A stretch of DNA of 57,861 nt from Candidatus Omnitrophota bacterium (GCA_041650795.1 JBAZKK010000005.1:1-57861); one strand, 5' to 3'; positions 32,655-57,861 are shown, counted from the first letter of the stretch. Notes: a model not told the origin generated them from the letters alone. Numbers and translations are program-made.

Positions 32655-32683
32655 ATTATAACAAATATAACCGTTGCAAGCAA
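32655..32683 (-). promoter_or_regulatory. Sigma70-type promoter upstream of the MFS gene
   Basis: Minus strand TTGCTT-17 nt-TATAAT with TGn extended -10. The spacer contains TGCAACGGTTATA, loosely resembling a LacI-family operator. Confidence 0.6.
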
Positions 32684-32723
32684 TAATTATTATCCTCGTC
32701 GTAAGCATCCGGCCGCCCGGCAA

Positions 32724-33572: not shown

Positions 33573-33576
33573 GACA

Positions 33577-36191: not shown

Positions 36192-36251
36192 ATCTTCACC
36201 TCCTTCCTATGAGTATTTTTGCTCCGTGGCTGATTTTTATCTACGGTAGTT

Positions 36252-36270
36252 ATTATAGCACAATTTGCTA
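36252..36270 (-). promoter_or_regulatory. Extended -10 promoter overlapping a TAGCA-N5-TGCTA palindrome
   Basis: Minus strand TGCTATAAT, AT-rich upstream, no clear -35. Inverted repeat tagcacaatttgcta at 36256-36270. Confidence 0.5.
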
Positions 36271-36303
36271 TTTTGGCTACTATTTTATTTTATTAAAAAA
36301 TAC

Positions 36304-36642
36304 TTATGCAAAGGGTTGATTTAACCTTAAAACCCTCGAAAAACCCATTAGTTCCGGCCTCGCCAACTCTACTCCGATGCGGTATCTGCCGTCAAACAAG
36401 GGCCTGGACCACGCCACCGAACCTTGGGTGTAAAGGTCAGCAAAACCATCCGGAATATCCAGCCATATCCCCAAAGAAGTGCGGGGCTTCAAGGGTTCGC
36501 TGCTGATAAACCCCACCCCCTTGGCGCTGACATCGCAGGCCTGCCCATGCCCAACCTTGTTTGCATCCAGGTCCATGAAGCGCAGGGGCAAATCTGTAGC
36601 GATGCGCTCAAACAGCCTCTTATCCTTTACCAATATCCTCAT
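36304..36642 (-). CDS. Single-domain PilZ protein (paralog of 35865-36191)
   Basis: RLFER and DVSAKG motifs; shares ...ELMG[LF][AS]RVL C-terminus with its neighbour. Start set at ATG 36642, 8 nt after AGGAGG. Confidence 0.88.
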   Translation of the reverse strand: MRILVKDKRLFERIATDLPLRFMDLDANKVGHGQACDVSAKGVGFISSEPLKPRTSLGIWLDIPDGFADLYTQGSVAWSRPLFDGRYRIGVELARPELMGFSRVLRLNQPFA

Positions 36643-36679
36643 CCATGCCACCTCCTTTTTCCTTTCTCCGTGGCTGTTT

Positions 36680-39600
36680 TTAAGATACTGTCGCGTTACC
36701 TGCCATTCTATTCAGTAACTCGGACATTTTAATGCTGTCTCTCGCGCTATCCAGAACCGCGGCTGCATCAAAACTGGGATGATGCCACTCTGAACCGCTA
36801 TTAACCTTAAGCACCTCGGCTCCGGCTCCGTTCTCGTTAAGAATGCCCTGGATTTCTTCTCTGGTCAGGGAGCCAATCGGAGCTACCAACATTGCGTATT
36901 GGTGTTTGTTATTATATTTAAAAAATACGGAAAATGTGGGGTCAATATACATCCACGGGCGATTATCCTGATACATTACTATAGCGTGATGCGGCCAAGG
37001 CGCGGGAGTAAAGCTTTTCACTTCAATATTTATAAATTCGATGCGCCTCGGCCCCTGGGATGAAATAACAAAGTCGTAACCGAGCCCATGCAACTCCTGC
37101 TGCAGCAGAAGCGCAAAAACCGTTGCGCCGTCGCAACAATCAATATTATTCCAACCATAGATCTCTTCCATGGCCTGGAGAAAACCTTGGCGATGGTCAG
37201 TATCGTCCGGACTCTCCATCTGTTTTATAAACTGCACCGCTTCATCCTGAAGCCGTCTATTGGATTGCTGGAAATCGGCTGGCTGCACAGAGAATGATTC
37301 TTGTTTTGCCGTACCGGTCGTAGCGGGAATTATCTCTTCCGGATGCGAAGCTGAGGCAGAAGCGGAAGGTGCCTTAAATCTTAACCCGGCGTAGAATTCC
37401 TTATATAAATTATATAATTTCTCGGCTTCTTGCTCTCCCATAACACCTATTACCTCGCTCTTTATTTGAGAAATAATTTTTGATCCCTCCAAGCCGACTG
37501 CTTCAGCTAACAGCAGCTGTAAAATAAGCGCAGATAAAATGACCGGGTGCTTCTTGACCAAACCAACTAATTCATCGTTTTTGAAATTAAGCCAATTTTC
37601 AAGAGCTATTTTTGCCCGAGGCTCAAGCCCCTCACGTACCTTTTCTCTTCCAAGTATCTCTATAGCAACCCGGTCGGCGATTAATTCTAATAAGTTATTG
37701 GTAAATCTCCCCTGGTCCTGCTGGCAACCTCCGTGATTAACAAAATCAAACTTATTCCATTCCAAATAAGGGTGCCTTTGCATATCCTGCCCTAAAGCCT
37801 CACGTTTAGAAATGACATCTAACAATTTATACAAATCGTCTGCGGGATCAAAAACAATGTGCCCAAGTTCATGGGCAAGATATAGCCGTAATTCTTCATC
37901 TGATAAATTAAACTTTTTACCGTCAAAGGAAGGAAGAAAATTCATAGCCATAAAGATGCCGGGGTCGGACGGACTCCCCATCAATGTTACTGCCATGTCT
38001 ATCTCTGGTTCCGGCTCATAAGAAAACCTGTGTACCTTCTTCAAATTTATGCCGAATTTACGCATCCCAGCATAAATTTCATTCAGATACACTCCAATCA
38101 ATCTATCCCAGTACAAGGTTTGAGCAAGTAATGCGATTAATCTTTCTTCTTTGCCTCTTGTAAATTCGAAGAATCCAGAGATATCGCTAAATCTGGTGTT
38201 GGTTAAATAACATCCCCAGAGGGCCAGGGCTTCGTAAAAATTATCTGAAGAAACCAGGGGATCCTTCCTTAAACTGCTAACAAATTCCTCGGCAATTGAA
38301 GTAGCTAACACCAAATAACCATCACCCTGTTTTTCTAAGGCATAGAGCTCGCTTCTGATGGGGTTACGGATGCCTATCTGGGTTGCCTGGCGGTGTGCTT
38401 GTTCGTGGGTTCTGATTTCGCTAAGGAGCGTGTCGGATTCTTTTTCGGTGAGGACTTGGTTCTTGATTATTTCATGGAGCAGTGACTGAAGCTCTTCTTC
38501 GCTGGTGCGGTCATTGGCAAGGGGATGGAAAAAGGCGTTGCACCTCTGCCTTGGGCTTGGAGAGCCTCTTGTGCCGTTTATCCCGGCTGTCTTCCACAAG
38601 GCTACCTTATAGCCTAATTCATATATTTCCTCATAATGCGCTGCCTGGGGTTTTCCGGCCAGCCTAAGGAATTTAGCAAATAGCCACTGGAAGGCGGAGA
38701 CGAAGTTGTGGTTTTTCCTTTCCTGCGCAAAAAGAGAAAGCTGTTCTGCCTTTTCTGGTTGACTTTCTTGCGGCGGCATCTTAGGGTTGATAGCAGCGGA
38801 CTTGTGTAAAGTGACCTTCCAGTCCTGGGGTTCTTCCTCAAACAGAACGTATTCCATGTCGTTAAGAAAACTCAAGGCTTTATCCTGGAACTGCCTCGAG
38901 ACCAAAAGAACATCCAATTCCTGCCTTTTGAACTGGAAGAATATAGGCAGGCGCGCTTCGGGCCTTAGATTAAAAATATTACCTATTCTATAACCTGGCT
39001 GCAAATCCTCTTCTAAAATAGCGGCGGTATCTGATATGTCTGCTACGATGACAAACGGCCCCGGTTTATATTTTTCGATCAACTCTAAAAGCCGGCTGAT
39101 CTTGACTATCTTAACGTGTTTTATCCCGTGTTCGGTTAACCAGGATAATGCCCTTTCCCCTGTGCCTGCCATGGCATTAATCAGGGTCTGGCTGGATTTA
39201 TTGCTTCCCCGCCCTGCTTTATCCCTTTGATATTTAAGATACTCTTCCAGGGGCTGGGGGCCTTTGGTCTGGATGTAATTTAATGCCCTCATGGCCTTGC
39301 GTAACAATGCCAGGCAGTAAGAAAGCTCTCCGGCAGGAACAAGCAAGACATACGGGTTATTGAGTTCTTTAGCTATATCTTGTGTCTCATTGATTAAACT
39401 CTCAATCCTCTCCAACCTTTTCTGGCTTATAGGAGCCGAATTGACAAACATCAGATTAACATCGTCTAAATCCAGAGTCTCTTTCAATTTCAGGTATTCT
39501 TGACGGCAATAATAGCTAAGGTCGCTTAAAAGATTATCCATGGCGCCCCCCAACTCCTCGAGCGCCTCCGAAACCAACCTCTTTAAAATACCTTTTATCT

Positions 39601-42600
39601 TTTCAATATTCTCCTGGGCTAATAAATCTTCCTCGCTATGCAAGGGAGCCTGCTGCGAGTTGAATGCCAGACCGAAAACAAATGGCAAGGCAAAACCCAA
39701 ACCATAAGTTCCATTTTTTAATAACGCGTAGCCCGCCAAACCGGAAAGGATTAAAGTAAATAACGAGCCAATGGCAAGGCTGATACCGCTTCTTCTCTGA
39801 ATCAAGCGTTCCAGCCCTTCATCCTTAGTACCCCTGCCTTCGAGCACATACCATAAGCCGGGGTTACCAGCGCGCCCTAAGATATCGTTTTCATTAACCT
39901 CGGGCCGGTAAAAAATAATGATATCTGCCTGATAACCGGCCGGCAGATTTCCGATTTCGCCTTTCTTGGTTGTCTGGGCAATAATCACGTTTTTATCAAA
40001 TTCTTCCTGCATATTTTTTGTGGTTGCCCTACCTTTTAAAACTCCGATTCCGATGCCCAACGGCCTCAGGGATCCTGTCAGGGCCGAGAGAATCTTATCC
40101 GCGCTAACAGACTCATAAGCCACGATTAATATCTTTAAACCCGGCAGGCGGGCATTATTCTTCACTAACCCTGGCACATTTCTAACTATCCAATCCAGCT
40201 TGGGATGCTCCAGAAGGTAACGCCCATCCTCCGCTGCGGTGTCGATGTCTCTCAATAAAGAGGCAACATTCTCTTTTATGGAATTAATCTGAGCGGAGTA
40301 CTTGGTAAAAATACGCCAGGAGGCAAAGAATCTTCTTGTCGCCAGCATTATCTCATCGTGTTCTTCTTCGTCGCCGCCTTTAAATGGCGCGATGAGGTTA
40401 TATTCTCCCCTGCGGTGCCTGCACTGTGCCTCTTCGGTAAATATCTGCCTTACCTTCTTGGGGTTTATGGGTGAAGTTAAAAACTCAGCCTCCAGCCTTG
40501 CATCAATCTTATCATCATTAGACAGGTATCTTGACAACTCCTGCCAGGACAAGCCTAAATAAGCGCCAACTACCCTCCTTACCGCCTCTTCCTTTCTCTC
40601 CAGGTAGTCCTTTAACTCCGTCACCCCAGACTGCTCAAGGTGCTCCAGCGCCAGGTAAATTATCCACAGGAAGCTTACATCCGCTAAAGCATTCTGCCTG
40701 CGGCGATAATCCTGGGATATATTCTCTCTTATAAAACTCTTCATCTGTTGGTGGCGGCTAAAGCTCATCTTCTCGCGGTGCTCTTTAAGATAATCCAAGA
40801 CCTCGGGAGTCAGAGGATGCTGCATCCGGCCGGGGCGGTAATACGGGGCGTATCTCTTAAGAGCCTCCAGCCCATCACAATACATTTCCTCCAAAGCATC
40901 CAAAATATTCTGCCAACGTGAATCAGCAGGCAAAGAGAGGAGTTTTACTATCCTGCCTGTATCGGAGTCCTCCAAACCGCGGGTTTTTCTTTCCAGCCGA
41001 AGGCATTCCTTTTCTGCTGCCTTACGGAAAATATTACCCTGTCCTTCAACCTTGAAAAATCTTCTTGCGTCAACGTATTCGGATATGCCGTCGTTCCACT
41101 GCGCTTCATTACAAATACAAAGGCACCCGTCGGCATTCAGAAAGGGGTAGATTTTATCAATAAATTCCGGCAGGCGTCTCAGAGGAATCCACAGTTTTAT
41201 AACGTTGTTTAAGGCAATAAAATCCACCTTACCGTCAAAAGGCAGAGGTTCCCCGCTCATAAAATTGTAGCATTGGAATATTTTCTCCCTAAAACGGATA
41301 TCATCTTTATCTCCGAATATGACTTTAAAATTCTTAATCTCTTCATCCAGGCCGGGCTTCTCCCCGAAAAAATGCGCTATGGCCTTCTGGTAGGTTCGGG
41401 CTCTGGCAGCCTTGATATCCGTAGCGTCTAAATCCGTAGCAATAATTTCAAAATCATCCCCGCTTAACCCCTGCTTTATAGCTTCAGCCGCAAAATGATA
41501 GGCCTCTTCACCGCTGGCAGAGGCCGCGAACCAAATCCTGATTTTATCTTTGCGCCCTGCCTCTTTCATTCTGTAGATTTCCTGAACTATAAATCCTACC
41601 TGGCTTTTGACCTCTTCGCGCTCAAAAGAGGTATAGCTGACATCCACCACGTTATCCAGAAAATCCAGAAACCCTTTATCCTGGATAAGGAGTTTCTCAA
41701 GGACGCTGACAAAAGGCGCTCCCTCGTGGATAAACCACTCATCCGTATAGTTGTGGCGGATGGCCTCGACGTTTCTTAAATTACGGTCGCTTCTGCCGTA
41801 TATCAATATGCCGGTCTTGATATATACATACCTAAAGACCATCTTAAACATCAGGCGGTCAAACAGCTTGAACGCGATAGGGATTAACTTTTCTTTAATA
41901 TCGGCATATGTAGCTTCGCCGCCTAAGCCCTTTGCAACATTAATAATCGCTCTTTTCAAACGCAAGTTATTAAACACGGCCTCGGCAAGCTGTTCTGATA
42001 TCAAACCCAAAGGCCATAAAAGAAAATACGTCGCCGCAAAACGCAGGTTAAATATGGCACAAGAAGCAAAAGACGTTTTAGTGCCGATTCTACACGATAC
42101 CTGCTCTTCCAGCGCCGCGCACTTTTCATGCGGATAGCCTGATATAGCCGCAGTTTCATGAAGGATAGTCTTAGTTAATTCAGGGAGGTTATTCAGGAAG
42201 GCTGGATTGATGACAATGTAGCCGCGGTAGTTAAAGCCGTATAGCCGTATGCCGAAGAAAAACAAAAAGCTAAAGAGCCACTTTGGTCCAGCACGAATAA
42301 GTCCTTTTGCAGCTATTTCCTCTGATAATCTCTCAAGGCCATTTTCCCCTGCCTGTCTTAAGGCCTGGGCGGCTGCCTGGGTTGCCTTGTGGTTATCTGC
42401 CCCCCCAAAACCTCTGGAGAAATTATCGGATAACTTATATACTAGAGAGGTAACTGCATTCAATACCGACTTCTGCCAAGGAGGCAATTCTTTACCGTTC
42501 ATAGTGCGGGTGGAATCCGTAATCCCAGTTGCCGCAGCATTATTCAACGATTCGGAATACGGAACTGTCGTGCCTTCTTCTCCCTCTATACCGTCAAAAG

Positions 42601-45600
42601 AAGAATTAAGCATAAGGTCGCTCAACGCCTCTTCCTGCATCTTTAATAATTCATCATAGGTAACTACTGATATGCCTTTAGAATTGACATATTCTACTAT
42701 CTGCCTGAAAACATCTAAATCGAGCTCAGTGTAAACACTGGGCTGGCCTGGAGTAAATTTATGGAACAAGAGCCCTAAGGTGGCGTTGTTAGCAGCTGCT
42801 TTGTCTATCTGAGAGATTGTTTCAGCTAAGGTATCATTTGTTGCCGCATTACCATACGCATCTACTTGTTCAGGAACAAAAACATATAACTTATAAGGAT
42901 TAAAAGGAAACTGATAGCGTCTTATCTCATCGTTTGTTTCAATTTGATGAGAGGTAAAATGGTTATAAATCATCTCCAGGGTATCCTGGTCATATCTAAA
43001 ACGCGGGGAGGTATATGAATCAGCAACAAAACCCAGCATCCTTAATGTATTGGCGTTGCCAAAAGTCTCGTAGAATTTGACGTAATAGGGCTCATTTGGC
43101 ATATCGTCGACCCCGGAATGGGTCCCTATCTGGTTACCTTTAGCAGCCAGCTCCCGGATATCCTGCAGGCTCATATAACTGGCTGTCTGGTCATTGCCTT
43201 TGGCCATTTCATCCCAAATGGCAGATGGAATAATATTGTAAACCCCGCGATAACCGTATTGTTCCAATATATCGGTTGCCTCTAACGCCGATCTCCATCC
43301 GTCGTCAAAACGGAATACAATATGCGGCTTATTCAATAAGTCCGCGGCAACTGAATCAATCACTCTGGAAAAACGCACTCCATCAACGTACACATTCAAT
43401 GTTCCGTTATATCTTTGGGCCTTAATTGATATGCTTATAAACCCCACCTTCTGGCTGGAAGGAGAGTATTGCCGGGTAATATAATCTATGCCCTTAGAAG
43501 ATAATAACGCATAAGGCAATCTATTCAAATGACTCATGTTATTATCGTATTCATCTATAAACAAAATAATCCCTCCGTCATCAAGAGTCTCGGCGTTAAT
43601 CATAGCTTGCAATACATAAGTATTTCCGGAATCGACGTGGATTAAATCAGAATGCGCTTCTCCGGACGTTGTAATACGCAGGGAATTTTTCGCTGAAGGG
43701 GCTACCCCGTGATTATTATAATCTATACTCCAGCCTTCTAACGGTAATGTCCATCCCGCAGAGGCATTGCTTTTATTGTTAAGATAATCATTGATACTCT
43801 CAAATTTTCTTTCTCCTTTGGAATAAGCATAATATTCAATATTAGTTACAATATCTGCGGAGATTCGCTTGCTTGGCAAAAACAACATGAAAAACGAAGA
43901 TAAAAACAACGGCAATACAATCAAACCGGCATAAAAAACTCTACGTAAATAACCGATCTTATTATCTGCGGGAAAATGCTGCTTCTTGCTTTTAACGGGC
44001 TTGGCGGATGCTGAAGCCTTCGGCGAAACCGACCTGGTGGACCAGCCGTTATGCCCTAATGTCAAAAAAGCATAATAGTTGAGCGGGCCCAAGACCAGAA
44101 TATAGAGATACATATAAGCCACCCCGTAAATAAAATCTGATTTGCCTTTCTTAGCGAGATAATAAAGCGAACAAAGAAACGGCACAAAAGATACTCCCAG
44201 AATATACGACCAGGCCATCGCTCCATTGACCAGGGTATTCCAGATCAAAGCATAGAAAATAACTGCCGGTGAGAAAAGTGAAATAAATACCGATAAGTAA
44301 TAAGGAACAGATACGGCAGGATTTTTCTTCCACATAAAGCGACTGGCTACGGTCAGGGATTCTCTCCCCCAGGACCTCTTCCAACGCAACTGCTGCTTAA
44401 AATATTGCCTGAATGTCTCCGGAACGATAGTTGTCGCCTTGGCCTCGGAATGATAAATTACTTTCTTGCCTTCTCTCAATGTAAGATTGGTAAGGTTGCG
44501 GTCGTCGCCAAATGTGCATTTCTTACCGTGGAATTTCTGGTTTTCAAAATCAGGCAATATATCCAGGAGGTATTCGCGCCGATAAGCTGAGAAACACCCC
44601 GGGCAGCAGGATACCGCCCCAAAGACGCTCTCCGCCGCTTTAAATATTCTAAACATCACATAATACCAGACCTCCTGCATGCGGGTTAAACCATTCTTAT
44701 CCCAATTCACCACCTCGGTATGACCGGCAACCGCTCCTATCCTTTTATCTATCAAAGGTTGCACTATTTTATAAAGAGAGCCTTCTTCCAGGCGGCTATC
44801 CGAATCCACAAATACCATAATCTCACCCTTAGCCTGCCTAATCGCGGTCCCCATGGCTTGCCTCTTGCCGTGATTGATATGGAAGTTAATCACCCTGACA
44901 TTCCTATAAGGCCTGGCTGTTTCTTCAATAACTTTTAAGGTATTATCGCGAGAGCCGTCATTTACTACAATAACCTCAAGTTTATCCGCAGGATAACCGG
45001 TGTTAAGACAACTGGTGATGGTTTCCCTGACGCTTTCTCCTTCATTGTAAGCAGGGATAGCCACGGTTACGGAAGGATAATAATTTGCTGGCTTGGGAGC
45101 GCGATAGAAAAAAGATGTAATTATGCGGCTAAAAACATAGACTACCGTAATAATGCCGTAATTTTTAAATAACCAGGGGAGAGTGGAATGCTGGACAGAA
45201 GTATACTTAAGATAAACTATTGCTAAAAATACAGCCCCTGCTACAATTACACCGGCCAGGGTGGAAAATTTTAAAGGGCCTTTTTGGGAAACTTCATTTG
45301 TAGCTGAAGGGCTTGGTATATCAAGAGTATTTTTTTGTTGAATTCTAAGCCTTAATTTAAGGGATGGCTTTTTATTGGCAAATACCGCAGCTGCAATTTC
45401 ATAAGCCAAGGACCTGTTTTCTCCTTCGCTTGCCCCTTCTGGAATAATAATATAGGCGTCTCCATTTCGGCGGCAACGCACAATGCCTTTTGACCACGAC
45501 GGCGGAGCGCGCACAAAATTTATCTTACCTAACTTGACCGGCCTTACGGTAATCTTTAATTTTTCCAAATAAGCTACCGCCTGCTTGATTTCCGGAGACT

Positions 45601-51600: not shown

Positions 51601-54600
51601 TTTCCGCTAGCTCCGGAGATTTAAGCGATAGCTGTTTCCTAATCGAAGCTGCGTCAACAGCGGCAATATGTTCAAGATTAATCCTAATCTCCTGATTTCT
51701 TATCCCTAGCATTCTCAAAATAGAATCGGCATTCTCCAGTCCGTTTACCAAATAGTGCACTTCGGACTCTAATGTGGCATCAAGATTATCCATAGCCCCC
51801 AAGCTTACCGCCACCACGCAAATTCCGGCTATGCGCCCTGCTGTTTCAGCCGAATCTTCAAAATGGATTAGCTGTTCCGGTCTGGTATTTAATTCGCGCA
51901 TAATCTTGCGCATTGCCCCGGCCTTGCTTAAATACTCCTCCGGCACGCCGCTTCTTATTGCAAGGGACATTATCTCTTCTGGATAAATAGCGTAAATATG
52001 CCTCTCTCCTATAAACTCTAACAGTCCTCTTCTGCGCAATTCATCAATTAATAAATCCTTCTCGCCATCGCTTACCACAAAAATCTCCACTCCTGCGCTT
52101 CTTAATGACGAAAGGATAGCCTTAGTTTGCAACAGGTAGCTATCATTTAATATTATGCTCCCGTCAAAAGACGCTGCCTTTAAATCTCTCAACTGGGGAT
52201 TTAAGGATACTGCCCCTCTTAAACTCAATTCTCTTTTGACCCTAGAGGTCTCCGGTTTTATATCCGGCTCGCGCCCTATGATTTTCCTTACGGCGTAATT
52301 AACCAAAGGCCCCACGGATACCTGCTGCTGGGCAGGGAAACCGTCTGGCAACTCTACGGATTTTGTGGAAAGGAGGAGCCGGGGAGGCATCAGCTCGCGC
52401 TCCTTATCTATGTATTTCAGCGTTGGCTCTATCCTCTTCCTTTTTTCTATAGCCGCCAGTATTTCCTTTTCGCTGCGGCCGGTATTGAATACTTTTAGGC
52501 CGTGGGAGAACTTCCCGTGCACTACCCCGGTCAGGATCCTATGCCAGAAAACCCCTACTTTTCTTACCAAGGCATAGGTTGCAGCCATTATTGTCCCGCC
52601 GGAGGAGGTTTCATCGTCAATCACAAAAACCCAACAGTCTCTCACGGGCCTTCCTGCGACCAGTTTGATTTTACGGCCGTCTTTATCTAAGATAAAACCT
52701 GGTATCACGACAGTGGTAGAAGTGGTCCTTACCTTATCCATATAACCGCAATAAACCCTTAAACTGACGCCGTAATTATATTCTACGTACCCCTCCAGCA
52801 CAGCGGCTGCCTCGCATATATACTTGTAGGCCCCGTCATCGGGGGCAACCAATAACAGAGGGTGCTTCTTGAACTCTTCCTCCAGGCGCTCCGGCCTTAC
52901 CCATCTTATTAACTTCTCGAAAAGGCTTTCGGCAATCTGCACGAACGCATTGAGGTTATATATCTTATAAGGATATCCGTCTAGGCCGGTATAACCGCTT
53001 TCTTTCCCATAATGGATGTTTAAAACAAAATAATTATCCACCAGGTTGTCTATGCTTTTTAACATCACAGCAGCGCTTACGCCCTGCCCCGGCCGGAATA
53101 TTTTGTCCTGCCTGGAATAAGCCGCGTAGAGATTGATGAGCGATATGCTGCCCACCCCTGCCCGGCGAAGAGCAGAAAGCATGAGCCACAATTCCGCAAT
53201 ATCAACGCTATTTTCAGTGCTATGCAATAGAACTACATTCTTACCCTTTATGCCATCTGGCAAAGATATCTCCCAGTCCAAAGGGTTTGTTTTATTCTTT
53301 ATAATATTGGCCCTTTCAGCGCTTATATTGATTTCTCCTGCCGCTTCTTTAGCATCATCCTCTAGCCGTTCATGTTGATAAAGAACCTTATCTATCCATA
53401 TCGGGAACTCCTTCTTATCTAAAAGCGGCTGGGGACTGGCATCCCAATCTTTGAGTACGCCGTTTTTCTCGTAACCCACGCTATCGCTAAAACTACGCAA
53501 GAAATCCCCCAGGCCATTGCTAAAGGAACTGCCCGGCCTGTTCGTTATCAACCGGATAGTCTTGGCCTTGTAACTCCGCAAGAGCTCCAAAGTCAATATC
53601 ACCCTCACTAAATCATCCGGTGACCCGATATTATGCCTTAGGTTCACATTTGCCCGTTTTACAGTATAAGGATTTAAAATTACAGGGCCCCATTCTCCAT
53701 CCGGGAAACGAGTAAATTCTATGCCTATGGACGAACCCTCATCAGTTTGTGCTATGATTACCTCTGTCCCTATTGTTCTTTCTGAAGCCAGATAACCGAT
53801 AAATTCCTCCTCTACTTTAAGGTTCTCTTTATGGTTTAATCCCTGAACCGCTCCCAATTCATGCAATACGGTTAAACTTAACTGGGTAGGGTCTGTCAGG
53901 ATAGTGTTGTCAAGATATAAGGCGCCTTTATAAAAAGCCCCGTAAATTAACTTAAAGGGAGCGAAATGTATTTTATTGCGTTCTGACAAAATCCTGTCTA
54001 AATCCCTTACCCAGTCCTGGCGGCCGCTATCATTTAAGAAGTCGCGAGCCGGCTTGCAAAAATCCCTCAGTTTAAGATGCTGGGAATCGCTGCATACGCT
54101 GGAGTTGTCCTGGTTTTTCCTTAGCTCCTCTTCAATCTGTTCTTCGCTTAAAGATGCGCCGGATTTGGACCGCGCGAAATCATGCTTACCCAATGTTGCG
54201 ACTACCCATCCGACGCTCGCCCCCCAGGGGGATTGGAAAAATGTATCGCGAGGCAAGCCAAAGGGGTCAATTTTATTTTCCCAAGAGGTAAACAATTCCA
54301 CGTTCGCTTTCGGCAATGAATGCTTTAGGGCCTCCTTCATTACTACCAGGCGCGTGATAGCTTCATAGTCATCACCGTTATATATGGACGGCGCGAAATA
54401 AATCCTCCCATTGGGTTTTACCTGCTTCGCCAAAGAGGCAGCGTGGCTCCTCATTTCATTAGGATAGATTAAAAGATTCATTGAAATAACAACATCGGCA
54501 GGCCCTAATTCCTCTTTATTGGCGTCCGCAAATACAAAAACAAGATTGGAGAGCTTCCTTTTCCTCTCTGCCTCTATTATCGCGGCAACATCATAATCTA

Positions 54601-57600
54601 CACCGACCACAACTGCCGAGCTATCCTGCTTTTGATAGTATTTTGCCATATTGCCGGCAGCCTCTGCGAATTGGCAACCGACATCTAAAACGCGCAAACC
54701 TTTTCCTTTGGGCCAGGGGTTAAGCCTGGCTCTTTTGACTGCTATTTCAATCTCGCTCCTTGTTTCAGGATGCTGCTTGGCAATCTCAGCAAATACCATC
54801 CTTACAATAATGCTGCGCACTAATATTGAACTATCTCCTGAAAGAGACTTAATCAACGCCTGACGTATCTCTTGCTGCTTCAACTTGTAAACTTCCCCTA
54901 AAAGCAATGCTGCCTTGGCGCGCATCCAGGGCCTGTTATCTTTTTGCAATATCCTTATTAAAAACTGGATTCCTTCTATGCCGGCATCGCGGATCTCCTG
55001 GACTATCGCTTCATCTCTGGCATGATTAACAGTCCGGCTCGTACCTTCCCCTTCTATCTTAAGGTATTCTTCAACTGGAAAATCCCGGCGGTCAAGTCCG
55101 GACATTACAAATAGAGCGGCCCCGGCCACCCCTAACATTTGTTTCCCCACCAGCCACGGAGAGGTCAAAGCAAAGAGGGCGAGACCGAGGCCAAATCCAA
55201 TCATCACGGCGGTTTTAATCTCAGGGATACGAGGGGTCCTAGTGAGGTCTCCCGGGGAAGTCGTCCGGGCACCAGGACCCACATCGCATCCTGAGTTCGG
55301 TACTAAAGCGGCCTCGGCTAATCCTGTTTTTGCTTGACCCTCACCAGCCACGGAGAGTTGGGTAAGCCAGGTTAAACCGAGGCCAATTAAAGAAACCGCT
55401 TTCTCTTTGGCAAAATAAAAAATAGCTTTGATTTTGCAGTAACCTAAACCATTTAAATATTCCTCTTCTAATTTAATCTTAGAAAAAACAACTGCTTTTA
55501 ATAATTGACTCAACTCTTCCGGATGGTTCTTAAAATACTCATAGCTTTCCTGGCAGGCGAGTTGGTGGGAGTTGGTTTCTAATTCTTCGGTTTCGTGGCG
55601 GATGATGTCATTAATTAATGCCTGGAAGTCTTGGGAAAACGGCTCATTCAGGTTAAACGGCGGGGCGCGGGAAGCCAGTCCGCTTAGCACCGCTACCTTA
55701 CCAGAGATGGTCTTGACATCGGCGATCTTGCCGGTTAGGGTCTCATCTACGAATACTACTTCGTTGTTTCCAAAATACCGCTTGAGGTTCTCCAGTTGCT
55801 CTATGGTAGGTTTAATTAACTCCCCTGCGAGGCGAGCGGGGTAGGTTTGCCTTTCTAAATCCGAAGGTAAAATAGAGAAATCGGGACTAACTGACTCATC
55901 GACCTGGGCCATACTTTTCTCTGGTAATTGCGTTGCGGCTTTCTCCATTTTCTCATGGAGAACAGCAAGGCTGTGACTAGCTTTTTTATCGTTTGGCTTC
56001 ACTTCAAGCGCTTGTTGATAATAGGATTCTGCCTTACCATATTCACCTAATACCTCGCAGAGGAAACCAAGATTATAATATGCCCTCATATCTTTGGGAT
56101 CAGAGGCTAAGGCCTCCTCATATAGGGCTCTTGCTTCTTCGTATCTTTCTAATTTATAGCAAAGGACGCCGAGGTTATTAAGCGTCCTGGTATTTTTAGG
56201 CCCGGACTCAAGTGCCTTCCGATAATAATCCTCTGCCTCTGAGTATTTATCTGACTTCTCCCTGAAAACTCCTAAATTATTAAGTGTCACTGTGTCATCG
56301 GAGTTAACTTGCAGCGCTTTTAGGTAATAAGCTTCTGCCTCCTGGCAATTACCTAATTTTTCAGAAATGATACCGAGGTTATTCAGAGTTACAACATCAT
56401 CAGGAGCAAGCTCAAGGGCTTTTAGATATTGCTCTTTTGCCTGTGGGTAGTTGTGAATTTTTTCGTAAAGGCGGCCGAGATTATCGTAGACTTTAGGATC
56501 TCTGGAATTAGTCTCAACTGACTTTTTGTAACAATCTTCTGCTTCGTCATATTTGCCCAATTTCTCAGAGACAAAAGCGAGATTTCCGAAGATAATCGGG
56601 GTTAAGCCATAATCGCTAGTTATCTGTAACCGCTCATAAAGAAGCGCAAGGCATTCATCAGGTGCCACGGGATTCCCTTTATAAAGATTTTCTCTTGCCT
56701 TAGCTAATTTTTCGTCTGGGACCTGATGCAGCAGGCTTAAAACAAGATAAGCTCCCCGGCGCTGGTAACACTCTCTGACTCTTATTTTTTCAATTCTCCG
56801 TAAAGCGAAATCAATAAATATGGCCTCATCGTTGGAAATCCAAAGCTCTATAAGGGCGCGCCCGGATGCCGAAACGCCGTAAACACCGTAACCTAACAGG
56901 CTAAATAGGATATAAGTAAGCTGTGGGAGGGCGGCGTATGAAAAAATTCTTTTTTCAAATGACCTTCTTCTCCCAAAGCTGATTCTTGAATCTTCCAAAG
57001 CTGTAATTACATCCGCTGCGCTATCTCCAAGGCCGCTAACCAAAATTCTAAGAAGTGGATGGACGCGGGAATTGCTGTTTATCCCCTGCATTTCAAGGAA
57101 ATTCCTCATTTTTCTTATGAAGCTCATTAAACTATCGGCATCTTTCCTGGAAGGCGCCTCTTTCCGGAATTCATCGAAACTCCCGCTTTTGAATATACTC
57201 CAGAATTCCGCTGAAATCATTTCAATATTATTCAAAGGATAACCTAATTGCTCAAGTATCTCCTTTAGCCTATCATTAAGTTCAGGTGCTACAGGGACAC
57301 CGGTAGTCTGTCCGTAAGCAGAGGGTTGAATACTTATCCCTGCTTGAAACGCAAAGATCTCCCCTTCAGATAACTCAGGATTATCTTTATGGAAATTCTC
57401 GTGTCTGTAGATAAAATCTATGAAGCCCGATATTTCATTATTGCTAAAGCCGCGGCCTTTTAGCAATTTTCCTGTTTTACTCTCATTTAATCCACCGAAT
57501 ATATTACTTAAGGCAGACGCAAATTCTATCTTTTCTGTTGAAGGGTTGTAGTGGGCGACTTCAACAGGAGGACCTTTAATCTTCCCTGAAACACTAAGCC

Positions 57601-57861
57601 ATTCTTCCAATATTTGCAATGCCTCGGCATACCTCTTCCATTGACCGGCGGTTGCCGAATTAACATTGCGACTATTAATAAAAGCTAGTAACTCTTCGGA
57701 GGTTATCTTGCGGATGTCTGAACCGGAGGGAGTTGTATCTTGATTTTTCTGGTTTTCTTTACCATATCTCTTCAGCGCCACATTCGCCTTAAGGTACTCT
57801 TCCTTGTCCTTGCCTTCGATATCAAGGGTTCTGCCGCCTAATTTCTCGGTGATGGGGGGGG
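36680..57861 (-). CDS. Giant multidomain protein (more than 7,050 aa; 5' end outside the window)
   Basis: Track ORF of 7,033 aa from GTG 57781. I translated the remaining 80 nt and found no stop (…PPITEKLGGRTLDIEGKDKEEYLKANVALKRY), so the gene continues past the edge. Many recognisable enzyme motifs (see findings). Confidence 0.93.
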   Translation of the reverse strand, partial: PPITEKLGGRTLDIEGKDKEEYLKANVALKRYGKENQKNQDTTPSGSDIRKITSEELLAFINSRNVNSATAGQWKRYAEALQILEEWLSVSGKIKGPPVEVAHYNPSTEKIEFASALSNIFGGLNESKTGKLLKGRGFSNNEISGFIDFIYRHENFHKDNPELSEGEIFAFQAGISIQPSAYGQTTGVPVAPELNDRLKEILEQLGYPLNNIEMISAEFWSIFKSGSFDEFRKEAPSRKDADSLMSFIRKMRNFLEMQGINSNSRVHPLLRILVSGLGDSAADVITALEDSRISFGRRRSFEKRIFSYAALPQLTYILFSLLGYGVYGVSASGRALIELWISNDEAIFIDFALRRIEKIRVRECYQRRGAYLVLSLLHQVPDEKLAKARENLYKGNPVAPDECLALLYERLQITSDYGLTPIIFGNLAFVSEKLGKYDEAEDCYKKSVETNSRDPKVYDNLGRLYEKIHNYPQAKEQYLKALELAPDDVVTLNNLGIISEKLGNCQEAEAYYLKALQVNSDDTVTLNNLGVFREKSDKYSEAEDYYRKALESGPKNTRTLNNLGVLCYKLERYEEARALYEEALASDPKDMRAYYNLGFLCEVLGEYGKAESYYQQALEVKPNDKKASHSLAVLHEKMEKAATQLPEKSMAQVDESVSPDFSILPSDLERQTYPARLAGELIKPTIEQLENLKRYFGNNEVVFVDETLTGKIADVKTISGKVAVLSGLASRAPPFNLNEPFSQDFQALINDIIRHETEELETNSHQLACQESYEYFKNHPEELSQLLKAVVFSKIKLEEEYLNGLGYCKIKAIFYFAKEKAVSLIGLGLTWLTQLSVAGEGQAKTGLAEAALVPNSGCDVGPGARTTSPGDLTRTPRIPEIKTAVMIGFGLGLALFALTSPWLVGKQMLGVAGAALFVMSGLDRRDFPVEEYLKIEGEGTSRTVNHARDEAIVQEIRDAGIEGIQFLIRILQKDNRPWMRAKAALLLGEVYKLKQQEIRQALIKSLSGDSSILVRSIIVRMVFAEIAKQHPETRSEIEIAVKRARLNPWPKGKGLRVLDVGCQFAEAAGNMAKYYQKQDSSAVVVGVDYDVAAIIEAERKRKLSNLVFVFADANKEELGPADVVISMNLLIYPNEMRSHAASLAKQVKPNGRIYFAPSIYNGDDYEAITRLVVMKEALKHSLPKANVELFTSWENKIDPFGLPRDTFFQSPWGASVGWVVATLGKHDFARSKSGASLSEEQIEEELRKNQDNSSVCSDSQHLKLRDFCKPARDFLNDSGRQDWVRDLDRILSERNKIHFAPFKLIYGAFYKGALYLDNTILTDPTQLSLTVLHELGAVQGLNHKENLKVEEEFIGYLASERTIGTEVIIAQTDEGSSIGIEFTRFPDGEWGPVILNPYTVKRANVNLRHNIGSPDDLVRVILTLELLRSYKAKTIRLITNRPGSSFSNGLGDFLRSFSDSVGYEKNGVLKDWDASPQPLLDKKEFPIWIDKVLYQHERLEDDAKEAAGEINISAERANIIKNKTNPLDWEISLPDGIKGKNVVLLHSTENSVDIAELWLMLSALRRAGVGSISLINLYAAYSRQDKIFRPGQGVSAAVMLKSIDNLVDNYFVLNIHYGKESGYTGLDGYPYKIYNLNAFVQIAESLFEKLIRWVRPERLEEEFKKHPLLLVAPDDGAYKYICEAAAVLEGYVEYNYGVSLRVYCGYMDKVRTTSTTVVIPGFILDKDGRKIKLVAGRPVRDCWVFVIDDETSSGGTIMAATYALVRKVGVFWHRILTGVVHGKFSHGLKVFNTGRSEKEILAAIEKRKRIEPTLKYIDKERELMPPRLLLSTKSVELPDGFPAQQQVSVGPLVNYAVRKIIGREPDIKPETSRVKRELSLRGAVSLNPQLRDLKAASFDGSIILNDSYLLQTKAILSSLRSAGVEIFVVSDGEKDLLIDELRRRGLLEFIGERHIYAIYPEEIMSLAIRSGVPEEYLSKAGAMRKIMRELNTRPEQLIHFEDSAETAGRIAGICVVAVSLGAMDNLDATLESEVHYLVNGLENADSILRMLGIRNQEIRINLEHIAAVDAASIRKQLSLKSPELAETLGLFFLYADYQNIGSVKINFVAGKSTAGIKFLAEKDAEGERKTMVITTPYFPSVRNLLSSFLGTAMIDNIQIFVHEVDSLYPGKLSRNIKRWLMRNFSLQRASAEKARLEKKFGASLEITETVIPVSRVVPTRNSFEFNKVRIVNNDAEIQEAPIVLLKHPSIKNIYYVLDGNYRVLANNLKGAGMINAFILEFNRPPKQFLYSVKGITDGKTLSSEWAKAAACIETLAAKGHLDNKGIEKINVVIRCNRGTSARLVKKHLVVFYDPTLPRATDNLINVLEDIFDAKGLLPRSEAINHSRPVRQLWEARRHCSQPKVAFGFLRVGAETWFKRALYLTSRSIRAPPYYIGYILGLPLSPLILTVTLIVSLFLPTATTSGQDTKYFIPPSKLSLFTRGALDLHEQAHREGEDEAGALSSEAPYFRSDVPGAELKKRVLEFLAQTFQENVAVTLEEIAAQMPWNLKRRVSQSGLQRALKELCLSGNIIEYEEAGKYLLLDLNIFPKENYVGKGLWGTPLITGGVKGFADILTSGHLTFLPRNVRKYFLKEIYLSFEPKEQAVVDLFIEAYIEMARTAPEEFREQLPEELRIEYKDAFVDSAFSEGGLEELRKVRANLLGLSNDRQMDKEFKDSFAQLAAQKDVVKSVLNGLNAGFESLRQKMPRIKTYQQRDNLVRDLERDMHRALRALLLIQYEDFKDTHWTDRQVVFYRRLVSFYADIFAKIYEPLYAAKPTFVLYYDAELKRQDIFGVGDFYREEKERANSAALKIFPRIYNTFAGVLDWPIPEEDKMKATLSGRIGKFIKMARAYTDVLKIEYPGLRQVPLAVQKAWSEYKQEMGDGVSPDYLFELTTFYRALERICVICAAANAMDFGDPRFQKEASEAGFNEESWLIQKIEEVASRGLYKKQLDEFFEILASVKLKAMVSLGAFRFIFDEARPKVIILTDNAGETVLVMLLASFLLESGFNVVIASRDVPVINDITSQDAVALLGELRRLGYFKNYSEVRLKVISSGSRMFATPAAKLSGSFLREFKDKSTFCVVAMGQGNAESLWQMQSRKPFIHILMAKNPEKIEEFKGIPKHSAMLLVNAPLDIDNILAKEVDMSGEIVCLKDHAVLLSGLYASGKNIIINDAANIYIYAEEFKHLTEEFPRCFGKNVILDASEGLIYLGKVKIGDNARISAEDQTIIRRGAAIGKDCYIADSIIIGSAIEDGQLVVGRKSVAMGREEMRFGLREIGIEPSNELNKDGVSSLSVNKPLYARLIKSGVVIRGEPSTIYVSEEAKVEPGAVVHSYVNILGKSRVRKEAVLGPVVSLRNTYVGTNAKLSRLRAINCLFYEGSEIDDAGLLEDEIIRPYSNIVTSDQKIKLTGVISDHELKKGANGILALRFKPLRAINRYSLIAGGKRKQLPLTFGEIKSRHEDAVTVLGNHIMESISAARDLFIELHDDRRFTAEFMFKVWAAVETLMESHWVDGLTFYEVQALLWQIVWVYAESPFELVKRESDEDALPLSLDLIRLLDSSPNAYQRLSLAMKTVALANLNFFDRRRPESFHDELSLAPRKFNTVLQNIHYGETVNGVLNMIDDKGYFALDQAQEVAERLLKVPKKERINKTVLFNVDNSGEVLYCLVLIREVLKLGYKVVIAANAKPIDDNYDLEDLKKLLDRYEVRQPSFLGKFLDENKVEVISDGSVISGLDLIDVGEEFYSVATDENTIMMFSVGYDLVKDLLTEELSLPAVSMSWVKAPAALEEAGLNVKRGKAMVLFVDKQKTTGQIGKLAAVNTVSEEEEGRRIAKVISVKSGNELGELKLVRSSNKAFRWSLEGLFNDENNEGNYILEAFLENLEKSPPRFYTFSGILGDLFGFSMAEPQLIAVQQAVLNNPLAIFHEIGEHLAQTGALRMELKNRVLKVGIQREEARINLSSRTIRFIRAENWKPGWQSSPHYLLRVLQEELFENQDKELTSLVRGLSLHHFVEANRSPKQAVNRAVNLAQLRHGLLKDWEKINVESPEIKQAVAYLEKLKITVRPVKLGKINFVRAPPSWSKGIVRCRRNGDAYIIIPEGASEGENRSLAYEIAAAVFANKKPSLKLRLRIQQKNTLDIPSPSATNEVSQKGPLKFSTLAGVIVAGAVFLAIVYLKYTSVQHSTLPWLFKNYGIITVVYVFSRIITSFFYRAPKPANYYPSVTVAIPAYNEGESVRETITSCLNTGYPADKLEVIVVNDGSRDNTLKVIEETARPYRNVRVINFHINHGKRQAMGTAIRQAKGEIMVFVDSDSRLEEGSLYKIVQPLIDKRIGAVAGHTEVVNWDKNGLTRMQEVWYYVMFRIFKAAESVFGAVSCCPGCFSAYRREYLLDILPDFENQKFHGKKCTFGDDRNLTNLTLREGKKVIYHSEAKATTIVPETFRQYFKQQLRWKRSWGRESLTVASRFMWKKNPAVSVPYYLSVFISLFSPAVIFYALIWNTLVNGAMAWSYILGVSFVPFLCSLYYLAKKGKSDFIYGVAYMYLYILVLGPLNYYAFLTLGHNGWSTRSVSPKASASAKPVKSKKQHFPADNKIGYLRRVFYAGLIVLPLFLSSFFMLFLPSKRISADIVTNIEYYAYSKGERKFESINDYLNNKSNASAGWTLPLEGWSIDYNNHGVAPSAKNSLRITTSGEAHSDLIHVDSGNTYVLQAMINAETLDDGGIILFIDEYDNNMSHLNRLPYALLSSKGIDYITRQYSPSSQKVGFISISIKAQRYNGTLNVYVDGVRFSRVIDSVAADLLNKPHIVFRFDDGWRSALEATDILEQYGYRGVYNIIPSAIWDEMAKGNDQTASYMSLQDIRELAAKGNQIGTHSGVDDMPNEPYYVKFYETFGNANTLRMLGFVADSYTSPRFRYDQDTLEMIYNHFTSHQIETNDEIRRYQFPFNPYKLYVFVPEQVDAYGNAATNDTLAETISQIDKAAANNATLGLLFHKFTPGQPSVYTELDLDVFRQIVEYVNSKGISVVTYDELLKMQEEALSDLMLNSSFDGIEGEEGTTVPYSESLNNAAATGITDSTRTMNGKELPPWQKSVLNAVTSLVYKLSDNFSRGFGGADNHKATQAAAQALRQAGENGLERLSEEIAAKGLIRAGPKWLFSFLFFFGIRLYGFNYRGYIVINPAFLNNLPELTKTILHETAAISGYPHEKCAALEEQVSCRIGTKTSFASCAIFNLRFAATYFLLWPLGLISEQLAEAVFNNLRLKRAIINVAKGLGGEATYADIKEKLIPIAFKLFDRLMFKMVFRYVYIKTGILIYGRSDRNLRNVEAIRHNYTDEWFIHEGAPFVSVLEKLLIQDKGFLDFLDNVVDVSYTSFEREEVKSQVGFIVQEIYRMKEAGRKDKIRIWFAASASGEEAYHFAAEAIKQGLSGDDFEIIATDLDATDIKAARARTYQKAIAHFFGEKPGLDEEIKNFKVIFGDKDDIRFREKIFQCYNFMSGEPLPFDGKVDFIALNNVIKLWIPLRRLPEFIDKIYPFLNADGCLCICNEAQWNDGISEYVDARRFFKVEGQGNIFRKAAEKECLRLERKTRGLEDSDTGRIVKLLSLPADSRWQNILDALEEMYCDGLEALKRYAPYYRPGRMQHPLTPEVLDYLKEHREKMSFSRHQQMKSFIRENISQDYRRRQNALADVSFLWIIYLALEHLEQSGVTELKDYLERKEEAVRRVVGAYLGLSWQELSRYLSNDDKIDARLEAEFLTSPINPKKVRQIFTEEAQCRHRRGEYNLIAPFKGGDEEEHDEIMLATRRFFASWRIFTKYSAQINSIKENVASLLRDIDTAAEDGRYLLEHPKLDWIVRNVPGLVKNNARLPGLKILIVAYESVSADKILSALTGSLRPLGIGIGVLKGRATTKNMQEEFDKNVIIAQTTKKGEIGNLPAGYQADIIIFYRPEVNENDILGRAGNPGLWYVLEGRGTKDEGLERLIQRRSGISLAIGSLFTLILSGLAGYALLKNGTYGLGFALPFVFGLAFNSQQAPLHSEEDLLAQENIEKIKGILKRLVSEALEELGGAMDNLLSDLSYYCRQEYLKLKETLDLDDVNLMFVNSAPISQKRLERIESLINETQDIAKELNNPYVLLVPAGELSYCLALLRKAMRALNYIQTKGPQPLEEYLKYQRDKAGRGSNKSSQTLINAMAGTGERALSWLTEHGIKHVKIVKISRLLELIEKYKPGPFVIVADISDTAAILEEDLQPGYRIGNIFNLRPEARLPIFFQFKRQELDVLLVSRQFQDKALSFLNDMEYVLFEEEPQDWKVTLHKSAAINPKMPPQESQPEKAEQLSLFAQERKNHNFVSAFQWLFAKFLRLAGKPQAAHYEEIYELGYKVALWKTAGINGTRGSPSPRQRCNAFFHPLANDRTSEEELQSLLHEIIKNQVLTEKESDTLLSEIRTHEQAHRQATQIGIRNPIRSELYALEKQGDGYLVLATSIAEEFVSSLRKDPLVSSDNFYEALALWGCYLTNTRFSDISGFFEFTRGKEERLIALLAQTLYWDRLIGVYLNEIYAGMRKFGINLKKVHRFSYEPEPEIDMAVTLMGSPSDPGIFMAMNFLPSFDGKKFNLSDEELRLYLAHELGHIVFDPADDLYKLLDVISKREALGQDMQRHPYLEWNKFDFVNHGGCQQDQGRFTNNLLELIADRVAIEILGREKVREGLEPRAKIALENWLNFKNDELVGLVKKHPVILSALILQLLLAEAVGLEGSKIISQIKSEVIGVMGEQEAEKLYNLYKEFYAGLRFKAPSASASASHPEEIIPATTGTAKQESFSVQPADFQQSNRRLQDEAVQFIKQMESPDDTDHRQGFLQAMEEIYGWNNIDCCDGATVFALLLQQELHGLGYDFVISSQGPRRIEFINIEVKSFTPAPWPHHAIVMYQDNRPWMYIDPTFSVFFKYNNKHQYAMLVAPIGSLTREEIQGILNENGAGAEVLKVNSGSEWHHPSFDAAAVLDSARDSIKMSELLNRMAGNATVS
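55945..56610 (-). repeat. Array of about seven TPR repeats within the giant protein
   Basis: 34-aa periodic units, e.g. VTLNNLGIISEKLGNCQEAEAYYLKALQVNSD / VTLNNLGVFREKSDKYSEAEDYYRKALESGPK / RTLNNLGVLCYKLERYEEARALYEEALASDPK. Confidence 0.9.

Follow-up and report, generated by a model that had tools for sequence, protein, structure and literature searches.

A 57,861-nucleotide stretch of DNA from Candidatus Omnitrophota bacterium (GCA_041650795.1, JBAZKK010000005.1:1-57861; hereafter the window) carries on its minus strand one giant open reading frame (ORF), and raises the question of how so long a protein chain is organised between its domains. Both published papers on giant genes of this kind leave open whether the product stays one chain or is cut, and one of them states that missing information on cleavage points blocks structural analysis. 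The ORF, at least 7,059 codons long, is here read as the 3' portion of a genuine enzyme-rich Omnitrophota giant gene in its canonical locus, with zincin-like modules in the chain, a reading that is considered probable. The gene itself belongs to a described class; the new part is a set of undescribed mini-zincin modules with RAPP-like motifs at the boundaries of the cargo domains.

The open reading frame

The window is the entire contig C5 of a metagenome-assembled genome (MAG; 1.185 Mb, 64 contigs, 85% completeness). The frame occupies positions 36680-57859, contains 7,059 sense codons without an internal stop, ends with a stop codon at 36680-36682 and runs off the contig end at 57859. The preliminary description, made from the sequence of the window, had claimed a single ORF of more than 21 kb, and this is borne out, with the 5' end open. 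An in-frame GTG lies at 57781, yet the giant frame stays open to the very end. The contig terminates in a run of eight G (57854-57861), which is probably a read artefact at an assembly break and makes the first two PP codons of the open frame doubtful. The gene is almost certainly truncated at its 5' end, because the frame is open to the end, the contig stops at poly-G and the first module of the chain (M1, below) looks internal by eye. No direct DNA repeats of 25 nt or longer that could cause a mis-join were found inside the giant gene. Neither end overlaps joining C5 to other contigs of the MAG nor a match of a 42-mer from the C5 end in the metagenome contig collection were found. The G+C content is 42-47% in the giant gene and 49-53% in the flanking genes.

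The same-genus genome G002 holds on its contig C4 (Ga0265297_10000731) an ORF at nt 2-51538, of at least 17,179 amino acids (aa) and with the 5' end likewise open. The genes downstream of it have the sizes and order seen in the window, and gene order and similarity mark this frame as a syntenic orthologue. Each of the 40 relatives searched has a match to some part of the query, and stop-free frames, the longest of 68,606 aa, are present in several of them. The gene in the window is an Omnitrophota giant gene of the published enzyme-rich type, a further, 5'-truncated member; the earlier view of it as an Omnitrophota giant gene is supported by the module relatives named Candidatus Omnitrophota, the large ORFs in relatives and the matching locus.

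Modules between the cargo domains

The cargo domains are set apart by conserved modules of about 110-160 aa. Self-comparison of the chain showed that aa 1305-1412 resemble aa 5206-5313, and in the search of relatives aa 666-811 and 1221-1361 stood out as conserved patches in many giants. Between the C5 and G002 giants the modules are 63-77% identical, versus 31-52% for the cargo. Along the chain they are, from N- to C-terminus:

57335..57682, minus strand: M1, aa 60-175, KGPP ... HENFH; resembles by eye an internal module of the mosaic protein P0007
55427..55846, minus strand: M2, aa 672-811, YPARL ... LASRAPPF ... INDIIRHETEELETNSH; mini-zincin-like predicted fold; its RAPP, aa 731-734, lies at nt 55658-55669, minus strand
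53765..54097, minus strand: M3, aa 1255-1365, HFAPF ... LHELGAVQGLNH; RAGP-type family without the Arg; mini-zincin-like predicted fold
50375..50602, minus strand: M4, aa 2420-2495, RAPP (aa 2429-2432), a hydrophobic 27-mer, then HEQAH
45365..46087, minus strand: M5 (HEIGEH, aa 3925-3975) and M6 (RAPP, aa 4117-4120, with HE degraded to YE)
42086..42430, minus strand: M7, aa 5144-5258, GLIRAGP (RAGP, aa 5189-5192) ... ILHETAAISGYPH
38312..38716, minus strand: M8, aa 6382-6516, HEQAH; 76-77% identical to two copies in the G002 orthologue

The resemblance of M1 to an internal module suggests that the N-terminus of the giant is missing. A three-seed hidden Markov model of hand-picked 'HE' modules matched its own seeds only, and M1, M5 and M6 are therefore defined by motif inspection only.

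Two recurring families could be characterised further. The M2-type has the consensus YPARL ... LA.RAPPF ... FQ.LINDIIRHE..EL.T.SH ... SYEYF and matches 37 of 1.84 billion representative proteins; the 25 that were retrieved are multi-domain mosaics or fragments of them. It occurs in 14 of 201 sampled genomes of the phylum, with 20 of the 24 matches in open frames of 2,622-44,145 aa, and five of the six named genomes with the module are Candidatus Omnitrophota. A 4.4-kb contig of 1x coverage with an M2 module (JBBABQ010000074.1) is binned as Candidatus Paceibacterota and is probably mis-binned Omnitrophota DNA. A word-index homologue search with the M2 module found nothing. In an 18-sequence alignment of the M2-type the R, A and P of RAPP, an F-Q pair and one F are invariant. 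The AlphaFold2 model (predicted local distance difference test, pLDDT, 90.5; predicted template modelling score, pTM, 0.84) shows a small sheet followed by a long helix that bears the HE, and Foldseek places the minigluzincins selecase and jannalysin closest to it in the PDB (probability up to 0.75, E = 0.22). The RAGP-type, with the consensus G.LRAGPF ... YLD.S.L ... L.HE.GA..G.TH..N..E, includes M7 and the Arg-less M3. Its model (pLDDT 90.0) has selecase, abylysin and jannalysin as top matches (probability 0.99, E = 0.017), with PprI/IrrE, SPRTN and Wss1 next. The template modelling score is about 0.5 for the top matches of the modules. The models thus predict, with high confidence, a minimal zincin fold for both families, and in the PDB minigluzincins match them best.

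The sequence HExxH is found in M1, M4, M8 and at aa 6663. The zinc-ligand pattern is HExx(E/H)-x5-H in the M2-type and HE-x8-H with a conserved downstream E in M3 and M7; across the RAGP-type family the H, the second H 10 residues on and the downstream E are invariant or nearly so. The HExxH modules listed in the preliminary description are present as motifs, and two of the recurring HE-bearing types have fold-level support as zincin-like. With the minigluzincins (selecase, projannalysin and proabylysin; PDB 4qhf, 4jix and 4jiu) the modules share a length of about 110 aa and a three-stranded sheet, an HE-bearing helix and a helix after it. They differ in that Pfam and PDB searches detect no similarity of sequence between the two, in the replacement of the second zinc His (HExxE or HE-x8-H), in being repeated inside a giant chain rather than free-standing, and in bearing an invariant RAPP-like motif.

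The RAPP, RGPP and RAGP motifs

The tetrapeptides RAPP, RGPP and RAGP are the cores through which SecM and the arrest peptides of the ApdA/ApdP type can halt translation (PMC12992588, PMC10951233). They are among the most under-represented tetrapeptides of bacterial proteomes, in which AAPP and AGPP are about ten times commoner than RAPP and RGPP, and RAPG supports no arrest (PMC12992588). All seven coding sites of the three motifs in the genome lie in giant-gene fragments, 13,227 aa in total: on C5 at aa 731, 2429 and 4117 (RAPP) and 5189 (RAGP), on C30 at aa 2268 and 2865, and on C50 at aa 1237. The remaining 362,868 aa of the genome contain none, versus 12.2 expected from composition; two sites in frames of at least 150 aa seem to break this rule, but these are shadow frames that run opposite real genes, and in non-coding frames the motifs occur at chance frequency. 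Tetrapeptides were also counted in ten pooled giant frames (203,394 aa), as follows.

RAPP: observed 20, expected 1.6
RGPP: observed 8, expected 1.3
RAGP: observed 8, expected 3.0
RAPG: observed 2, expected 3.0
AAPP: observed 0, expected 2.5
AGPP: observed 0, expected 2.0

Module-bearing proteins (66,988 aa) contain 33 RAPP and neither AAPP nor AGPP. The enrichment is limited to some giants, with one site in the 42,913 aa of G031 and none in G017 and G020.

The motif precedes the HE of the active-site-like helix by 13-61 residues, and in the pooled set an HE follows at +10 to +65 after 26 of the 36 motifs, versus a background of 6%. Transmembrane (TM)-like segments are not enriched after the motif in the same set (3 of 36 versus 6.4%). 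At least four motif contexts are conserved: LA.RAPPF; LLGRAPP ... TVY.HPYFF ... ILYHELISH; GLIRAGP; and NTLRGPPEQLKVIFQGHELAH. In a further RAPP context, IHSRAPPL ... EEILHYYYP ('IHS-RAPP-LIAELTIAEEILHYYYPE'), no HE follows; it is found at C50 aa 1237, in the giant of G010:C1 at aa 24311, in P0029 at aa 1187 and in P0037 at aa 683. The G002:C4 giant has four near-identical modules, '...GGILYVNPNTL-RGPP-EQLKVIFQGHELAH', at aa 4718, 6253, 6923 and 7787, in which RGPP, the strongest known arrest core, stands only 13 residues ahead of a canonical HExxH.

Degenerate copies of the M2-type, two of them in C30 and others as second or third copies in P0019, P0020 and P0033, keep the landmarks YPA.L, FQALINDIF and YF and lose both RAPP and HE; where the Arg is gone, the HE is gone too. 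The joint loss gives a contingency table of 21/4/4/6 (Fisher P = 0.016). This coupling argues against a purely translational signal and is expected if the two elements form one functional site of a folded module. Such a joint site might be part of the active site, or might combine a protease with the target of its own cis-cleavage. Pausing stays a candidate, since the place of the motif in the fold varies and its sequence is that of the arrest cores.

C30 (3-13544) and C50 (2-4963) are each one open frame from end to end, of 4,514 aa with NUDIX and aldose 1-epimerase domains and of 1,654 aa with GlgB-like and MobA-like domains, respectively. From their sequence they are taken to be pieces of a giant gene, that of C5 or another. 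They could not be assigned to the C5 gene: no end overlap was found, and matches to the G002 orthologue are patchy for C30 and absent for C50. Both have almost no counterpart in the two congeneric genomes, and both carry RAPP or RAGP sites.

Proposed function of the modules and alternative explanations

In the proposed mechanism the chain would be inserted into the inner membrane during synthesis, with most cargo facing the cytoplasm: the methyltransferases, the phosphoribosyl pyrophosphate (PRPP)-synthetase-like domain, the DUF89 phosphatase-like domains, the GlmU-like beta-helix and the catalytic domain of a family 2 glycosyltransferase (GT2). The cargo domains would be divergent paralogues, not housekeeping copies, and the zincin-like modules would be the organising elements of the chain. 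Modules that keep RAPP, HExx(H/E) and the further H may be active or self-inhibited mini-metallopeptidases that cut their own or neighbouring chains into membrane-anchored pieces, a tentative proposal that is nevertheless preferred here to the alternatives below. That mini-zincin modules with RAPP, RAGP or RGPP are processing or checkpoint sites, acting by self-cleavage or, in a bolder version, by stalling or 2A-like skipping between RAP and P or between RAG and P so that many products would come from one ORF, is a speculative and on the whole doubtful extension. If true, a sequence class purged elsewhere by bacteria would serve as the punctuation marks of the largest known bacterial genes. 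The boundary modules give concrete candidate places for cleavage at aa 672-811, 1255-1365, 2420-2495, 4090-4165, 5144-5258 and 6382-6516, and the confinement of RAPP and RAGP to giant-gene modules ties giant-gene biology to the arrest-peptide field.

Several observations weigh against the reading of the ORF as a giant chain with zincin-like processing modules. Foldseek gave weak E-values of 0.017-0.22, with none reaching 1e-3, and profile-profile comparison of the M2-type with the RAGP-type was not significant, so that homology between them is not demonstrable. Zinc ligands are incomplete in several modules, with HExxE in M2 and the second His absent from M3 and M7. Orthologous and tandem copies are among the motifs counted, so the P-values overstate independence. 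The hydropathy scan shows one isolated TM-like segment, at aa 2438, that would place enzymes that use ATP and S-adenosylmethionine (SAM) outside the cell. The 5' part of the gene, and with it the total length, the signal peptide and the upstream secretion genes, lies outside the contig, and a search for SecA_DEAD (PF07517, E <= 1) matched only the canonical SecA on C26.

An assembly chimera, separate genes fused by sequencing errors or a decaying pseudogene might be suspected from the poly-G end of the contig, the fragmentation of the MAG into 64 contigs at 85% completeness and a domain order unlike that of the G002 orthologue. Such an artefact can hardly be reconciled with 7,059 codons free of stops, the lack of internal repeats of 25 nt or more, the stop-free ORFs of 7,600-68,606 aa in dozens of relatives and the independently assembled congeneric contig, which has a stop-free orthologue with the same locus and the same C-terminus; this explanation is close to refuted. 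An unprocessed single chain, in which the zincin-like modules have no catalytic activity and act as spacers or oligomerisation units that hold the enzymes together at the membrane, is possible if somewhat unlikely. It would agree with the absence of canonical zinc ligands from several modules, with the self-association of selecase-type proteins, with the zymogen, monomeric, dimeric and tetrameric forms among the solved minigluzincin entries and with the treatment of giants in published work as membrane-anchored single chains. It does not account for the near-invariant H, second H and downstream E of the RAGP-type family, for the strong joint conservation of HE and RAPP, or for the conservation of the linker modules, which far exceeds that of the cargo and is unusual in inert spacers.

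The motifs may instead have been kept for stalling, as in SecM, ApdA and ApdP, so that pauses between cargo units would time folding, membrane insertion and assembly; in the extreme form the upstream chain would be released and translation would resume at the Pro, a bacterial analogue of the viral 2A 'StopGo'. This is judged improbable, since the joint loss of RAPP and the downstream HE in copies that keep the rest of the fold, the location of the motif inside confidently folded parts of both models, the lack of TM enrichment after it and the near absence of motifs from other giants all speak against it. It gains from the identity of the three tetrapeptides with arrest cores while the arrest-incompetent or commoner relatives RAPG, AAPP and AGPP are not enriched, from the complete avoidance of the motifs by the ordinary proteins of the genome, and from their occurrence in four or more conserved contexts, at differing places of the predicted fold. 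The G-L-I-R-A-G-P of the RAGP-type also resembles the SecM context G-I-R-A-G-P, and this likeness is counted for pausing. Stalling at RxPP can be abolished by the upstream context (PMC10951233). In the known cases an arrest peptide is a small protein, secreted or in the membrane, whose single motif sits near the C-terminus and whose gene lies upstream of a regulated one (PMC12992588). The chain shares core tetrapeptides identical to those of SecM, ApdA, ApdP and ApcA (PMC10951233, PMC12992588), at aa 731, 2429, 4117 and 5189; it differs in that the motifs are internal and multiple, lie in folded modules of a chain of at least 7,059 aa and co-vary with the downstream HE. Incidental pausing at the motif sites is more likely than stalling as a selected function, and the modules are less likely to be pause sites than candidate processing sites.

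Domains of the chain

Domain calls were graded by the significance of matches to curated Pfam and NCBIfam profiles, with PDB sequence searches added; TM-like segments come from a simple hydropathy scan (uncharged hydrophobic 19-mers). The features besides the modules are, from N- to C-terminus:

36680..57859, minus strand: giant ORF, 7,059 codons and stop, open at the 5' contig end
55910..56581, minus strand: TPR array, aa 427-650 (TPR_1 8.9e-41)
55097..55219, minus strand: TM hairpin, aa 881-921 (hydropathy only)
54800..54970, minus strand: HEAT-like repeats, aa 964-1020 (HEAT_2 5e-4, sub-threshold)
54395..54736, minus strand: SAM-dependent methyltransferase, aa 1042-1155 (Methyltransf_31 1.2e-7)
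52478..53347, minus strand: PRPP-synthetase-like domain, aa 1505-1794 (NF002095 1.5e-26; PDB 1u9y 1e-11)
51848..52153, minus strand: HAD-like region, aa 1903-2004 (Hydrolase 0.013, weak), with a degenerate DxD (first motif)
48401..49555, minus strand: ARMT1/DUF89 domain 1, aa 2769-3153 (1.7e-21)
47615..48100, minus strand: left-handed beta-helix, hexapeptide/GlmU-like, aa 3254-3415 (6.5e-6, sub-threshold)
46499..47266, minus strand: ARMT1/DUF89 domain 2, aa 3532-3787 (4.7e-12; self-similarity)
44033..45265, minus strand: two TM helices, then a processive GT2 of the hyaluronan synthase (HAS)/NodC/chitin-synthase type and C-terminal TM helices, aa 4199-4609
42722..43939, minus strand: TM helix (aa 4641-4659), beta-rich region and CE4/DUF2334-like deacetylase (aa 4843-5046), predicted periplasmic
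41114..41593, minus strand: CheR-type methyltransferase, aa 5423-5582 (1.1e-10)
39002..40201, minus strand: degenerate helicase-like regions flanking a TM hairpin, aa 5887-6286, not SecA_DEAD
37580..38062, minus strand: HELGH ... ELIAD zincin-like region, aa 6600-6760 (motif only)
36686..37255, minus strand: C-terminal Cys/His-containing domain, aa 6869-7058, 72% identical to the C-terminus of the G002 orthologue

Seven domains exceed the curated cut-offs, and with them the preliminary calls of TPR, SAM-dependent methyltransferase, PRPP synthetase-like, two DUF89, HAS-like GT2 and CheR domains are confirmed. HEAT, HAD, beta-helix, CE4, SF2-helicase-like and winged-helix calls gave matches that are consistent with the preliminary description and stay below threshold (winged helix 0.038; the SF2/Hef-like stretch, at 8e-8, is counted here). 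No profile match backs the ParB/Srx-like domain, the carbohydrate-binding module or the Cys-His-Asp domain at the C-terminus, and the label 'SecA-like' was dropped in view of the SecA_DEAD search. The PRPP-synthetase-like domain retains the PRPP loop VIDDETSSGGT and scores 71.9 bits, versus 388 bits for the canonical Prs on contig C8; on these scores the embedded domain is a divergent paralogue and not the housekeeping copy. PDB sequence searches returned nothing for the helicase-like region or the C-terminal 770 aa. Relatives of the C-terminal domain were found in none of the records searched beyond the G002 contig, and the word-index search was also empty. About 12-14 TM-like hydrophobic segments are distributed along the chain. 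That the cargo consists mostly of enzymes usual in the cytoplasm is supported; its presentation as the striking point of the gene does not stand, because enzyme-rich giants have already been described in two preprints, as Archaeovorins and as multi-enzyme metabolic clusters.

A proposed GT2-CE4 cassette

The GT2 (aa 4230-4609) matches NodC at 2e-58 and has hyaluronan synthase as its best PDB match (8.6e-37); the motifs VVNDGSRD, DSD (DSDS), GDDR and QQLRW are intact in the translation, and TM helices lie on both flanks. The deacetylase-like domain has sub-threshold DUF2334/CE4 matches (3.5e-5 and 1.6e-3) and the motifs RFDDG, HSGVD and LFH. Together with the TM helices and the beta-rich region the two domains may form a synthase-deacetylase cassette that would extrude and partly de-N-acetylate a polymer containing N-acetylglucosamine (GlcNAc). 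The GT2 catalytic domain would face the cytoplasm, as in solved HAS structures, and the extra TM helix at aa 4641 would put the beta-rich and CE4-like domains outside the membrane. The upstream GlmU-like beta-helix and the nucleotide and sugar-phosphate enzymes could supply or proof-read precursors, and the adjacent PilZ proteins possibly couple the activity of the cassette to cyclic di-GMP.

Among the synthase-dependent GlcNAc-polymer systems (hyaluronan synthase, NodC/NodB, PgaC/PgaB, and chitin synthase with chitin deacetylase), the same elements are a processive GT2 with D, DxD, GDDR and QxxRW and flanking TM helices, a CE4-like domain after a TM helix and PilZ encoded next door. Unlike in those systems, synthase and deacetylase are here fused in one frame of a giant chain, and the CE4 match stays below threshold and has another residue in place of the second metal His (HSGVD).

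Comparison with the orthologue

By BLAST, the C5 and G002 giants are 42% identical over the block of DUF89, left-handed beta-helix and DUF89, 46-52% in the GT2, 32% in the beta-rich/CE4 block, 46% in CheR, 37% in the helicase-like region and 72% in the C-terminal domain; the cargo cassettes overall range from 31 to 52%. Their order differs in G002, where CE4 stands ahead of GT2 and CheR behind the helicase-like region, and aa 881-2498 (HEAT, methyltransferase, PRPP-synthetase-like and HAD) are exchanged there for other sequence. From these alignments it appears that cargo cassettes have been reordered, gained and lost between species while the linkers were better kept, which suggests how such mosaics evolve. 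No orthologue of the C5 giant gene was detected in the same-genus genome G001 (93% complete). In G002 the contig C12 bears another giant frame, 14,471 aa long. The giant-gene content therefore varies within the genus.

Locus and published giant-gene class

The neighbouring genes of the window are:

35865..36651, minus strand: two small PilZ genes directly downstream of the giant ORF, a conserved feature of giant-gene loci
24493..35750, minus strand: sugar ATP-binding cassette (ABC) importer (substrate-binding protein and two permeases), major facilitator superfamily (MFS) sugar transporter, clan GH-A hydrolases and TPR proteins

According to West-Roberts et al. 2023 (bioRxiv 10.1101/2023.11.21.568195), most giant genes of Omnitrophota are followed by pilZ genes and by genes for solute-binding proteins, for permeases and for glycoside hydrolases; the PilZ pair, sugar importers and glycoside hydrolases found here agree with that locus. 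An upstream gene cluster resembling type II/IV secretion systems is a further feature of the class; the 5' flank here falls outside contig C5.

The 'Archaeovorins' were defined by glycosyltransferases, methyltransferases, glycosyl hydrolases, peptidases and NUDIX domains with HEAT and TPR repeats, and glycolytic enzymes, implausible localisations and unreliable TM predictions were also reported for them (West-Roberts et al. 2023, bioRxiv 10.1101/2023.11.21.568195). 'Multi-enzyme metabolic clusters' are one of three architectural classes (Class 1) in a later catalogue, in which 94% of the giants have TM helices or signal peptides (Nielsen & Lui 2026, bioRxiv 10.64898/2026.06.07.730766). Published length cut-offs for giants are over 10,000 or over 30,000 aa; the chain in the window reaches at least 7,059 aa in a contig-truncated frame, and its syntenic orthologue at least 17,179 aa in a frame also truncated at the 5' end. 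The cargo expected of the class is represented by the GT2, two methyltransferases, TPR, weak HEAT and the zincin-like modules, with NUDIX on C30 only, and the numerous TM helices by the 12-14 hydropathy segments.

With Archaeovorins the chain thus shares the phylum, the many TM segments, divergent domains, glycosyltransferase, methyltransferases, HEAT/TPR and peptidase-like elements, and the kinds of genes downstream. It differs from them in its recovered length of at least 7,059 aa and in the C5 fragment being without a NUDIX or glycosyl hydrolase domain (NUDIX is on C30, a GlgB-like domain on C50). A divergent SecA_DEAD domain, present in most but not all published full-length giants, was not detected here, though the missing 5' part could hold one. 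The mini-zincin modules and RAPP-like motifs are absent from the text of West-Roberts et al. 2023. Like the multi-enzyme metabolic clusters, the chain is tiled by many distinct Pfam families with none dominant, has methyltransferase and HAD content and HEAT/TPR scaffolding, and has TM segments in about 2% of its residues. The differences are that the catalogue, which has 5,761 Omnitrophota proteins, begins at 10,000 aa, the C5 fragment being shorter because it is truncated, and that Nielsen & Lui 2026 report no linker, arrest or cleavage analysis.

Elsewhere in the MAG, C38:3-4838 and C40:1-4116 carry paralogous signalling genes with the domain order Ser/Thr-kinase, AAA_16, TPR, GAF and SpoIIE. 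Both genes are cut by contig ends, probably through a repeat-induced assembly break.

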